A DNA stretch of 64,000 nucleotides. Origin: Cyanobacteria bacterium P01_D01_bin.156 (GTDB lineage Bacteria > Cyanobacteriota > Cyanobacteriia > Phormidesmidales > Phormidesmidaceae). Below the pieces are notes generated by a model. The model had not been told where the DNA came from. It saw only the letters and a program-made list of their open reading frames with translations, and ran no database searches. The stretch lies in the NCBI GenBank assembly GCA_039024555.1, contig JBCCQQ010000012.1, positions 32,001-96,000 on the forward strand, given 5' to 3'. The stretch's first letter is position 1, and each line of letters opens with the position of its first letter. The translations under genes and the position numbers were made by a program. Shown in pieces: positions 55,018 through 64,000 of the stretch.

Positions 55018-55405
55018 GTAACCAGACACCCGCCAAAATCGAAAGCGGATTATGTTTTCGTACAATACGGACCTTGATTCTCCGGTTGGTATTGTGTTTC
55101 AGTACCTGACCCAAAATCCTCACCTGCCGCGCCTGATGGGCAAGCGGAAGGGGGTGGATGCCATCTTTGCGTTTTGGCGACCGTTTGCGTTTCAGGCGAT
55201 GGGGCAGGCCAGCGATGCTGCGCTAAAGCTGATGGCTCGGGAGTCTTTGAAGGCGATAGCGACCGGTCTCAACACAACGTGCGGTGCTTTTGATATGTTG
55301 GCTTTGGCTGATGCCATCTGCTGTGTCAGCCCTTTTCGTTTCGATTCTATGTACAGCTCTACTTGTTTGATATCAATTGCTACAGTGGCTTTGATGGAGA
55401 TTTAG
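55010..55405 (+). pseudogene. Hypothetical protein coupled to the excisionase-like gene, probably degraded
   Basis: The ATG at 55010 overlaps the upstream stop and is in frame with the 55052 ORF, but TAA interrupts it at codon 4. The 3' end runs into the convergent gene. Confidence 0.45.
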
Positions 55406-56807
55406 GTACCCTTTTTCTTGAGGACTTTAGGGGCTTTTTAGTTGGTGAACTGGTTGCTTTAGTTGGTTTCTTGGCTGGATTGGATACTTTTTTTGTTGGA
55501 ACAGATGCTTGTTTTTTAGGAGAAAGCTGTTTGTCCAATTCACGTCGTCTATCTGCGTCTTGAGCCACTATTTTTGCTCTGCGGGTGGCTTCTTGTTTTC
55601 GGGCATTCTCGAATTCAGAATTTCGTGAGTTGGCAACTATTTTTTGAGCTTGATTGGAGTTTGCTAGTCGATTCAGGGGAATATAGTCGCTTTTGAAGTT
55701 GAGCTCTACTGAAGAGGTTAACTCTACATTAACGTTTTCTTCTTCTGTGGTGTGCGATCGTTCAGTCGAAACGTAGCCAATCGTATTTTGCAGTTGAGCA
55801 TCGACCCCCCATGGGCCAACTTTGGCTCCTCCCTTTACAGAAATTTTATTAGTCATGTCGAATCGGTTACCTTTATCTGCCTGGGCAGCGCTTCGAGCAT
55901 CAATATGAAATCGCATGGTCGCATTTATTCTGCCGCTCTCAATGACAATACGCCGCAGACCCATTTGTACCAGCGTGGCTAGCATTTGCTGCCGGGTTTT
56001 GGCTAGGTGACGACGCACAAATGGCAGCAGCGTTTTTTCTGGGTCTCCGCGCGTGGGTAGTGAACTCTTGTCATCTAAGCCTAATGATGCTTGAAGGGCC
56101 TCTTGTGAGGGCATTTTTGCTCCAGAAAGTAAGCGAATTGTAGTGTTACGACCGGTTGTGTTTTGAGGGGTGTGATCGCCCCAAAAATCATCATTGTCTC
56201 GATCTCTGTCCGTCAACTCAAACGAGTCAGGGAAACGTTCAACTAACCAAGTTCGAGCCTGACTAGGTGCCATGTTGGTATCGGCAAATCCTTCTGTCGA
56301 CGCTGCCACATTGTTCAAGAGTTCAATATACATATGCATTTGCTGCATATCCGAATCGACTATTGCTTTGAAAACACCATTGATTAGTTCTGCAACAAAG
56401 CGAGGAAAAGAAACTGCATTGATAACTCGCCGTGTATTACCGGCGAGTCGATCGATCGCTTTGCCCCCATGATCATCTGCAGCAGACTGAGCGGTGGCTA
56501 GAGGCGGAGATAACTCTATCTCATTTTCTCCAGTAGGAAGGTCTTCCAGATTCAATGTTTCAGAAGTCTCTTCTAATGCCCTGACAGTATTCTCACTGAT
56601 CATCTCTTCTAATATCAAGCCCACTGCAGTTTGACAAACATCTACCATTTTATGGGCTAAGTTTCGCTGACTTTTTGGATCTAATTCTTGATAGGCTGGT
56701 GATTCCAACAGCAAGGCTTTAACACTCTGGCGAACAACTGGAAGAGGTGTCTTTGTTGTATCATTAGAATGAATTTGATCAGGAGAGACTGTGTTAGGAT
56801 AGGCCAT
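55380..56807 (-). CDS. Hypothetical protein, paralogue 3 of the FPxFV/NFKSD family, with Lys/Pro-rich tail
   Basis: VSFPRFVAELINGVFKAIVDS, RQQMLATLVQMGLRRIVIESGRI, VELNFKSDYIPL. Its ATG overlaps the upstream stop (TAATG). Confidence 0.85.
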   Translation of the reverse strand: MAYPNTVSPDQIHSNDTTKTPLPVVRQSVKALLLESPAYQELDPKSQRNLAHKMVDVCQTAVGLILEEMISENTVRALEETSETLNLEDLPTGENEIELSPPLATAQSAADDHGGKAIDRLAGNTRRVINAVSFPRFVAELINGVFKAIVDSDMQQMHMYIELLNNVAASTEGFADTNMAPSQARTWLVERFPDSFELTDRDRDNDDFWGDHTPQNTTGRNTTIRLLSGAKMPSQEALQASLGLDDKSSLPTRGDPEKTLLPFVRRHLAKTRQQMLATLVQMGLRRIVIESGRINATMRFHIDARSAAQADKGNRFDMTNKISVKGGAKVGPWGVDAQLQNTIGYVSTERSHTTEEENVNVELTSSVELNFKSDYIPLNRLANSNQAQKIVANSRNSEFENARKQEATRRAKIVAQDADRRRELDKQLSPKKQASVPTKKVSNPAKKPTKATSSPTKKPLKSSRKRVPKSPSKPL

Positions 56808-57766
56808 TAGCGCCCTCCTATAGTGAAAGGCTCATGATTGGTAGGTGTAGCTGGTATGGATGGCTGAGTAATTTGCAGCCAAGCGATCGCACTAGCGACA
56901 ACAGCATGATCTACAGGCACCCATTGTGCCAAACTATCCTCTAAATGAGGAGAAACCTTTGCTAGCCAAGCCAATAGCTTCATGCCATGACGTCCCCGCT
57001 CTACATGCAAATCGATATTGATCACAGTTCCAGACGATTGATCAGTCGCGATCAATTGCATTGCCCGACGTAAAGCGGTCCAGATAGAGCGGCTACCCAG
57101 CGCTCGCTGTAGGTCTGGCTGCTTTAAAATGTACAATACTTGCTGAATAGAGCGAAGCAGGGCTTGCGCGGCGAAGGGACCTATGCTGCCTGAGCGACTG
57201 ATGACGTTGTAAGAAAGCTGCTGGGCCGCAATGCGAATTGGAATGTCACGACTGGATTGATTGATTGATTTCTGGTCAGATACTGATGTTTGAAGGGCGG
57301 TTGCTAGTTGAATGAATAAGGGTTCAAAGTTGAGATTGCGCCCGTTGGGGGCTGCAAAGGTAGGACCGGCTGAGGTGCCAAACAGTCTAGAAAAAAGTGC
57401 TTGACGTTCTATCTGAGTGAATCTCTGGTGGCGTTTTTCCCAAAACTTTATGAGTGGAGAGGCGGCTGTTCCCAGATCGGCTCTGATGCCACCACTGATT
57501 GCTAGTCCAGCGAATGTTTCTACTGAGGTGAGGAGTTGGATGGCTTCGAGTTCGGAAGCCAAGTATAGGATTGCGATCGCTTTCAAATGAGCCTGATCTG
57601 CCTGAGAGCCCAGGATAGGCGGTAGTTCAATTGTGCCCAGAGAAGGATCGCCAAAGGCAAGAGTCGAAAGCTGGGCAGACAGGTGATGAATATCACTCAC
57701 CAGTTGTTGGCTGGCAGCTAATCCCTGATCCAACTGCTCTAAGCGTTGTGCCTCCAAAAGATCCAT
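56807..57766 (-). CDS. Hypothetical helical protein, paralogous to the C-terminal domain of the 61474-63555 protein
   Basis: Long ORF in the operon; ATG at 57766 just after the upstream stop (the ORF track starts at 57808). Motifs LYLASELE, RFTQIERQALFSRLFG, NLNFEPLF. Confidence 0.8.
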   Translation of the reverse strand: MDLLEAQRLEQLDQGLAASQQLVSDIHHLSAQLSTLAFGDPSLGTIELPPILGSQADQAHLKAIAILYLASELEAIQLLTSVETFAGLAISGGIRADLGTAASPLIKFWEKRHQRFTQIERQALFSRLFGTSAGPTFAAPNGRNLNFEPLFIQLATALQTSVSDQKSINQSSRDIPIRIAAQQLSYNVISRSGSIGPFAAQALLRSIQQVLYILKQPDLQRALGSRSIWTALRRAMQLIATDQSSGTVINIDLHVERGRHGMKLLAWLAKVSPHLEDSLAQWVPVDHAVVASAIAWLQITQPSIPATPTNHEPFTIGGR

Positions 57767-63555: not shown

Positions 63556-63630
63556 TGATTTATTTCCTAAGTGATGTACAGATTTGAGGTGCTCTAGAGG
63601 GTTTACCCACAAATGATTTCTATTTCCTGG

Positions 63631-64000
63631 TCAGAGACTCGTCTTTGGCGGCGGCAACCCAGAATGTGTCGATTTATCAATGCGCCTATCTAGAAGACTC
63701 AAAGCAGCATACGTATCTAGAACACCTAATCCACAGCCCTTAACACTCTGCCTTTGCCATGGCTGTGCTGATGCATTCAATAACTGGTGAACATCAGCAC
63801 TACTTAAAGGGAAGGAACGTCTTGCCGCTCGGCTCACCAACAATCCGGCGGCAGATGCAACGAAGGGGGCTGCAAAGCTGGTCCCTGTGACTAAAGAGTA
63901 GCCATTCAACCCAGCACTATGAATTTGCTCACCGGGTGCGCACAAGGTGACGTGCTCTCCTCTTGTACTAAAACGAGAGGGATTATTTTCTGCATCTACT
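63631..64000 (-). CDS. S8 serine peptidase, C-terminal part (partial, starts beyond the right edge)
   Basis: Frame open to the window edge: VDAENNPSRFSTRGEHVTLCAPGEQIHS...VTGTSFAAPFVASAAGLL...GLGVLD (catalytic Ser motif). Confidence 0.88.
   Translation of the reverse strand, partial: VDAENNPSRFSTRGEHVTLCAPGEQIHSAGLNGYSLVTGTSFAAPFVASAAGLLVSRAARRSFPLSSADVHQLLNASAQPWQRQSVKGCGLGVLDTYAALSLLDRRIDKSTHSGLPPPKTSL

Follow-up and report, generated by a model that had tools for sequence, protein, structure and literature searches.

In a 64,000-nucleotide (nt) stretch of contig JBCCQQ010000012.1 (C12) of Cyanobacteria bacterium P01_D01_bin.156, hereafter the window, and in ~9 kb of further sequence read past its end on the same contig, we found a 12-gene operon that brings together a subtilisin-like S8 protease, four paralogues of a hairpin-bearing family (A), two paralogues of a helical family (B), a putative prenyltransferase of the ABBA-barrel type and a polyprotein of hydrolases. 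The operon is a real and highly conserved system, rare yet widely spread and apparently undescribed, and we tentatively favour, with a confidence that falls a little short of even, the reading that it encodes a protease-matured, multi-subunit device by which hydrolytic enzymes are carried to other cells.

All twelve genes are co-oriented on the minus strand in the order polyprotein, 438-amino-acid (aa) gene, A0, 80-aa gene, 257-aa gene, S8, long B, ABBA, A1, A2, short B and A3, with a GC content of 0.475 vs 0.471 for the genome. The seven genes in the window constitute the 3' part, and the operon reaches its 5' limit at C12:103787, ~7.8 kb outside the window. A sequence-only reading of the window had listed these seven co-oriented genes in the same order, with a TAATG stop/start overlap at 56807 and an overlap ATGAATAA at 60395-60388, and had proposed an S8 protease together with three copies of one family and two of another, all of which is borne out. 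A1, A2 and A3 are pairwise 28-38% identical (E 1e-37 to 1e-80), and the fourth copy, A0, is among the five further genes that came to light when the sequence beyond position 64000 was inspected, as that reading had advised. The 693-aa and 319-aa B proteins proved to be paralogues by profile-profile comparison (hhalign probability 99.95, E 1.2e-37, 258 columns), though BLASTP gave no match between them at E<1.

The gene-neighbourhood comparison that had been recommended across phyla gave a clear outcome. A scan of GTDB genomes returned 211 matching stretches, and the following counts rest on the best 80 of these (78 loci), with nine core genes considered and adjacent duplicates collapsed. All nine core genes were present in 47/78 loci and their order was identical in 45/47, an agreement well above chance, the exceptions being two Ruegeria loci with A2 shifted to the end; adjacent core pairs were kept in 54/54, 58/58, 60/60, 72/72, 72/72, 65/67, 66/68 and 63/64 cases, and incomplete loci were mostly cut by contig ends or by the 10-kb flank. 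Judged from record titles and tree labels, the 78 loci are spread over about 11 phyla with mostly non-cyanobacterial hosts, including the cultured carriers Lysobacter, Xanthomonas sp., Erythrobacter, Bradyrhizobium, Ramlibacter and Ruegeria. The system occurred in 1/301 genomes of its own phylum and in 1/201 genomes of an acidobacterial class, each time in the centre genome only, and among sequencing runs no RNA dataset was listed as carrying it. Divergent variants among L012, L013, L016, L018, L038, L071 and L073 carry additional A2-like copies (up to three), and a second cargo gene lies 3' of A3 in L013 and L016; no conserved gene was found downstream of A3 among related loci.

A profile search for family A retrieved 2004 representatives (50% clustering, E<=0.001), 517 of them at 1e-30, while a search for short A relatives restricted to 30-129 aa returned what look like fragments, and 0/109 candidate stretches from viral contigs contained A relatives. 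For relatives of A and ABBA alike, every source name seen was 'hypothetical protein'. Scans of Pfam, NCBIfam, PHROGs and PADLOC gave no usable family match for A or B, in agreement with the earlier reading, which had assigned neither to a named family with confidence. We found no published account of the operon in openly licensed PMC and bioRxiv full text; subscription papers lie outside this scope, as do supplements (e.g. that of PMC7159879), which may bear on novelty.

The S8 protease (PF00082, E 4.5e-37) consists of a propeptide-like N-terminal part and a catalytic domain, with no visible signal peptide, and its full catalytic set D185/H236/N341/S402 is invariant (60/60). Its closest solved relatives are thermitase (E 3e-26) and a cyanobactin N-terminal protease (1e-19). 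Between residues 185 and 236 the Asp-His spacing amounts to 48-52 residues in 60/60 members and exceeds that of subtilisin; this insertion, specific to the family, may determine which substrates are chosen. A short motif, x-x-[APS]-[LFQM], ends linkers directly before cargo domains, family-A cores and the short B domain, and from this placement we infer that S8 would cut there; a small residue at P2 followed by L, F, M or Q at P1 agrees with subtilisin preference. Across 46 polyproteins, scored with six anchor patterns and five domain types, the motif stood at 51/55 distinct cargo-domain starts vs 22 expected from shuffled linkers. In the linkers of the four A paralogues, scored for members with a matching core anchor only, the strict motif was present in 18/39, 18/52, 13/22 and 47/54 cases (the last being A3), vs shuffle expectations of 3.0, 4.1, 2.0 and 9.8. 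The operon's own short B domain is preceded by TLAF↓G, and the motif was found at 26/27 short-B sites vs 17 expected; before the homologous domain inside long B it was found in 3/35 vs 10 expected. With one motif recurring at the boundaries of domains, the earlier suggestion that the likely substrates are large proteins gains support. Several points weigh against this picture: the motif was defined after inspection and the scored sites are related, in A0 its loose form shows hardly any enrichment (13/14 vs 12.5), counts over whole proteins are confounded, the excess outside annotated domains is just twofold, and in a self-cleavage test the propeptide junction of S8 itself mostly lacked the motif.

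A polyprotein with a common N-terminal domain was recognised in 14/15 upstream regions examined, followed by domain strings that vary by locus (Amidase_2, C70, C92, trypsin-like, DUF3238, GH46-like; 721-1940 aa). In the operon's own polyprotein the catalytic motifs are present, and Cys precedes the C70 motif in 13/13 cases. An activator lies just upstream in 11/15 regions (sigma-54 in 6, BTAD/SARP in 5); none was identified among the selected ORFs (open reading frames) scanned in the remaining 4/15. A small gene was also seen just 5' of the polyprotein in L118 (11309-11692), L119, L120 and L121. Its product is either a DUF3467 protein, encoded next to a sigma-54 activator, or an unnamed protein of 107-127 aa, whose gene in L120 and L121 neighbours SARP-type activators. 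Variation of the cargo between loci is as expected of a payload, whereas a simple self-lysis cassette need not vary, and payload variability together with dedicated activators favours an outward weapon released by lysis (compare the passages on extracellular contractile injection systems, eCIS, in PMC8213781).

The two small genes near the protease bear on how such a release might work. The 257-aa protein matched PF19631 (Trypco2) weakly in 24/58 homologues (best 1.6e-4; hhalign E 0.094) and gave no significant match to family A. The 80-aa gene was spotted through a conserved intergenic gap (median 265 bp) and is kept in 54/54 loci holding both neighbours; 1/30 of its products matched PF19631 (E 0.009), Pfam, the sole library scanned, offered no usable family match, and comparison with Trypco2, DUF2589, A and B gave nothing significant.

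Programmed self-lysis or abortive death would involve the same processing, with the barrel opening the producer's inner membrane and leaderless wall hydrolases reaching its own peptidoglycan, in the manner of a holin-endolysin pair or a Pepco defence module. We consider this unlikely, even though a crude hydropathy check of 11 of the operon's own proteins detected neither signal peptides nor transmembrane helices, the cargo includes an amidase, a Trypco2-like gene adjoins the protease as in Pepco modules, related loci contain no conserved additional gene that could confer immunity apart from the 80-aa gene, and DUF2589 gene pairs, compared below, adjoin a lysozyme-like ORF. For suicide, however, a set of twelve genes and a varying cargo of many enzymes, several of them proteases, seem too much; a match to Amidase_2 is lacking in 6/12 long polyproteins, the genes upstream are transcription activators rather than phage sensors, and in a comparison of 11 operon proteins with the anti-phage gene sets of PADLOC 2.0 the subtilase alone matched.

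For the hydrolase-delivery device, the conduit would be supplied by family A. In an AlphaFold2 model of A2 (mean predicted local distance difference test score, pLDDT, 72.7; predicted template modelling score, pTM, 0.50; hairpin largely under a pLDDT of 50), a helical hairpin (18-61) and a loose linker are followed by a long helix (107-159), a small alpha/beta insert, a second helix (243-270), a long beta-hairpin and a C-terminal helix. A tree of 64 rows, built from pattern-captured cores of 21 chosen loci and the own genome with rows of failed pattern dropped, placed A0, A1 and A3 in one clade each (100/100) and 22/24 A2-labelled rows in one clade (99/99), both outliers stemming from one divergent locus; the labels are best-BLAST labels and agree with gene position. 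The four separate clades therefore point to four roles kept across phyla. Hairpin length is class-specific, with medians of 64 in A0 (61-69, n=37), 102 in A1 (92-123, n=52) and 78 in A2 (72-82, n=65), and exactly 70 residues in 33/33 A3 proteins, where n counts members with matching anchors out of about 54 (A0), 73 (A1), 80 (A2) and 65 (A3). Trp is located near the hairpin tip in 37/37 A0, 64/66 A2 and 32/33 A3 but 7/52 A1 proteins. A long amphipathic, Ser/Thr-rich hairpin with an aromatic tip is clear in A3, whose hydrophobic face has a median Kyte-Doolittle (KD) value of 2.5, weaker in A2 and A0, and absent in A1, the longest of the four with a charged fraction of 0.28. A complex prediction of the A1, A3 and A2 cores scored 0.02, pointing neither way on assembly.

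Searches for a structural relative gave nothing significant, neither for the A profile against PDB sequences nor for the whole-chain A2 model, with its low-confidence hairpin, against PDB and BFVD (Foldseek, VIA-align). The lack of a fold link to known pores would also fit a polymer or compartment that forms no pore, as would the non-significant rows, among which are ring proteins other than toxins (FliF, phage collar proteins). In such an assembly, stacked A hairpins would make up a fibre, tube or shell for the storage or display of digestive enzymes, as an extracellular matrix or lytic granule, and the motif would serve as a maturation or loading signal. Unequal hairpins rich in Ser, Thr and Gln, together with the hydrophilic, charged A1 hairpin, suit such a beta-rich polymer; the fixed length, alternating hydrophobic face and aromatic tip of the A3 hairpin and the high conservation of a putative lipid-anchoring enzyme speak against it, and we regard it as improbable.

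Family B may provide the scaffold of the proposed delivery device. The short B domain is homologous to the helical C-terminal domain of long B, whose N-terminus is variable and whose B domain (371-650) is conserved, within a model that is all-helical. Neither comparison of the whole-chain long-B model with PDB folds nor a PDB sequence search with the long-B profile returned anything significant.

Conservation of the 350-aa protein is high (67% mean column identity), and its weak resemblance to enzymes of the DMATS type leads us to treat it as a putative prenyltransferase. Trp_DMAT matched 53/75 family members at E<=0.5 (best 1.8e-4) and TIGR03429 (DMATS) 49/75 (best 4.2e-4), in both cases below the curated cut-offs; the window's own protein reached 11.9 bits vs 25 (Pfam) and 12.3 vs 164 (NCBIfam). 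The family is collinear with three actinobacterial DMATS-like proteins over 319 columns, but at E 0.068. E60 (74/75), R72 (70/75), K146 (69/75), Y148 (70/75), R194 (70/75) and Y326 (72/75) are conserved, and they may be the counterparts of the conserved Glu and the basic and Tyr diphosphate-binding residues of DMATS/ABBA enzymes, with which their positions match roughly. PDB sequence searches with the ABBA profile and two ABBA members gave nothing significant, and Trp_DMAT had no match in 151 own-phylum genomes, where controls were equally silent. Thus, of the earlier parallel with cyanobactin clusters, the ABBA-like character stands as a weak DMATS resemblance, while 0/75 members matched the LynF/TruF/PatF family (NCBIfam, E<=0.5).

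After the N-terminal domain, 11/15 polyproteins contain W[AG]GD and 15/15 contain [YF][DS]DG[YFL]; these short linear motifs look like cyanobactin RSIII sequences and could be docking, loading or prenylation sites. A cyanobactin-like pathway for ribosomally synthesised and post-translationally modified peptides, with S8 and the ABBA enzyme excising and prenylating a short linker-embedded peptide and the large proteins acting as carriers or exporters, is highly improbable: the pairing of S8 with ABBA, the S8 match to TIGR03895 (1.9e-25), the conserved Asp-His spacing and the resemblance of both motifs to the recognition sequences AYDGE/SYDD and FAGDDAE (10.1101/2020.03.17.996157) are set against a TIGR03895 score of 89.7 bits vs a cut-off of 421 with mycosin and thermitase scoring higher, a single protease, the missing LynF match, six large structural-type genes left without a role, and no short precursor gene, the operon's only large gap between annotated ORFs being filled by the 80-aa helix-and-hairpin gene, its sole small conserved ORF.

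For the hydrolase-delivery device we infer assembly, cleavage, prenylation and target as follows. Once the operon is induced, which would probably happen in only some of the cells, S8 would cut after x-x-[APS]-[LFQM], stripping an 80-107-residue N-terminal cap off each A subunit and a short leader off the small B protein, and splitting the polyprotein into free hydrolases. Via their hairpins, uncapped A subunits may then co-assemble into a long beta-barrel or tube, of which A3 and A2 would enter the membrane. The DMATS-like enzyme would supply an anchor by prenylating an aromatic residue, either the Trp at the tip or a Tyr in a linker, and the B proteins would form a helical scaffold. For release, the Pepco-like pair of two small helix-and-hairpin genes may open the membrane of the producer itself, whereupon the device would bring its enzymes into neighbouring cells, most likely bacteria. 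The sequence-only reading had envisaged a protease-matured hetero-oligomeric assembly, be it a pore-forming or membrane-targeting complex, a filament or a shell, possibly lipid-modified; the long pore-type hairpins of family A are in keeping with it. A fourth A paralogue, the polyprotein of cargo enzymes, dedicated regulators and the pair of small helix-and-hairpin genes were not part of that reading, and they shift it from a plain pore, filament or shell to hydrolase delivery.

A bolder version, possible but doubtful in our view, is a phage-independent delivery machine of a new class, in which four paralogues would form one prenyl-anchored beta-barrel conduit, a single subtilase would both arm this conduit and cut a virus-style polyprotein into a variable lytic cocktail, the prenyltransferase would act on large structural proteins, and DUF2589 pairs and Pepco would be minimal cousins. 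If our overall reading is right, bacteria would have a further kind of machine for delivery or lysis, one without ancestry in phage tails, pili or flagella, with a payload made by polyprotein processing and large proteins that are perhaps prenylated; prenylation of large proteins is rare in bacteria. The shared motif offers exact predicted cut sites, and the system would give a handle on families A and B, for which no solved relative was found, and perhaps on DUF2589.

Coordinates of the operon genes and of features discussed in the text (plain positions refer to the window; C12 and L001 positions as marked)
Feature	Position	Strand	Remark
A3, family-A paralogue, 475 aa, last operon gene	55380..56807	-	own clade 100/100
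A3 beta-hairpin, 70 residues, GPWG tip, most membrane-like	55710..55919	-	alternating hydrophobic face
Candidate S8 cut site in A3 (residues 103-108), motif LATAQ↓S	56484..56501	-	between N-terminal helical hairpin and core
Short family-B paralogue, 319 aa, single domain	56807..57766 (ATG 57766)	-	hhalign to 693-aa protein
A2, family-A paralogue, 403 aa	57771..58982	-	AlphaFold2 model
A2 beta-hairpin, 80 residues, Ser/Thr-rich, GGWF tip	57888..58127	-	
A1, family-A paralogue, 455 aa counted from ATG 60395	59028..60395	-	
DMATS-like (ABBA-barrel) putative prenyltransferase, 350 aa	60388..61440	-	weak Trp_DMAT and TIGR03429 matches
Long family-B paralogue, 693 aa, all-helical	61474..63555 (ATG 63555)	-	
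S8 subtilase, full gene 483 aa	3' end in window 63631..64000; full gene C12:97082-95631 (= L001:9632-11083)	-	PF00082
Trypco2-like/HhH/IPT gene, 257 aa	C12:97852-97079	-	outside window
Helix-and-hairpin gene, 80 aa	C12:98091-97849	-	outside window
A0, fourth family-A paralogue, 427 aa	C12:99378-98095	-	outside window
GH46-like (lysozyme-like) gene, 438 aa	C12:100714-99398	-	outside window; faint GH46 match
Hydrolase cargo polyprotein, 1037 aa; C92, Amidase_2, C70 domains	C12:103787-100674	-	outside window
Own W[AG]GD and [YF][DS]DG[YFL] sites	polyprotein residues 160-163 and 205-209, first linker (L001 about 17160-17310)		outside window; also L114-L128

Around the operon, a WD40-repeat gene lies 356 bp upstream on the operon strand (C12:104144-105346; L001:18145-19347), is cut by the contig end and might encode a regulator of STAND type that acts on the operon. 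Just past the 3' end, a 95-aa ORF on the plus strand (54730-55017) has an excisionase or helix-turn-helix (HTH) look by eye and may mark a mobile-element boundary. Positions 42259-53986 of the window hold a separate cluster of cyanobacterial type. Its plus strand carries a caspase-like and DUF4384 gene; its minus strand carries an unnamed HTH-like gene, a DUF1822 gene, a CHAT-CHASE2 gene, another unnamed gene and a TPR-CHAT gene. Such CHAT, CHASE2 and DUF1822 neighbours, like the closest related locus, point to a cyanobacterial host.

Among known systems, Pepco/Trypco modules, described in PMC12642450 as protease-activated beta-barrels, share with the operon a small helix and beta-hairpin domain beside a protease and, if the favoured reading holds, proteolytic activation of a beta-barrel; the 257-aa gene is weakly Trypco2-like. 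Pepco is a single 117-aa protein that is cut C-terminally by a sensor-fused serine or cysteine protease (PMC12642450; PMC7159879). In contrast, the present operon has a stand-alone S8 without a fused sensor domain that likely cuts N-terminally. It also encodes four hairpin subunits of 400 aa each, both B proteins, an enzyme resembling prenyltransferases and the polyprotein with the cargo, and profile comparison of family A with Trypco1/2 gave no match. At a further locus (L103), a Trypco2 gene and a CHAT-like ORF come directly after an S8-like protease ORF (neighbours judged by eye), so that S8 and Trypco2 are paired there as well.

The uncharacterised DUF2589 proteins (PF11655) share with family A the succession of helix, strand, Ser/Thr-rich hairpin with a GW-type tip, strand and helix, and their gene pairs likewise comprise paralogous copies with and without a membrane-type hairpin and a leaderless wall hydrolase nearby; family A differs in its double length, N-terminal cap and insert. 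The comparison started from an atlas lead of 0.79 and aligned in register by hhalign (E 0.007-0.04), with a reversed control equally high, and homology is not established because of this control. No Pfam match to DUF2589 was obtained among the four own A paralogues, no S8, ABBA or B gene was seen by eye in two DUF2589 stretches of 3.5 kb each, and 201 own-phylum genomes gave no DUF2589 match, with controls equally silent. In L081 and L086, a DUF2589 pair has a divergent LuxR-type regulator in front of it and a phage-lysozyme-like ORF directly behind it (by eye).

In binary-toxin translocases, a subtilase-type cut removes an N-terminal cap, the subunits oligomerise, and amphipathic hairpins form a barrel for an enzyme cargo; they are secreted homo-oligomers cut by a host protease. 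The likeness is one of logic alone, since no sequence match or significant structural match (Foldseek E 3.0) was found, and the operon differs in its four paralogues, its own protease and the absence of a signal peptide. More generally, the A2 model with its low-confidence hairpin gave no clear Foldseek or VIA-align row against beta-pore-forming folds (aerolysin, protective antigen (PA), MACPF, gasdermin).

On the features tested, the operon belongs to none of the cyanobactin, eCIS and PADLOC systems. Cyanobactin pathways (PatA/PatG with PatF/LynF) also place S8 and an ABBA-type enzyme in one operon and have look-alike short acidic-aromatic motifs, but here there is one protease below the family cut-off, where two are normal, and a DMATS-like instead of a LynF-like enzyme. 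Among the operon proteins no holin was matched in PHROGs or Pfam, and 11 of them gave no tail tube, sheath or baseplate match in Pfam, NCBIfam or PHROG, the 80-aa protein having been scanned in Pfam alone. BTAD regulators, lack of immunity genes and release by lysis are described for eCIS loci in PMC8213781, and eCIS and holin/hydrolase type 10 secretion resemble the operon in being rare, patchy and environmental, with BTAD-type activators, a variable payload, often no immunity gene and release that probably occurs by lysis.

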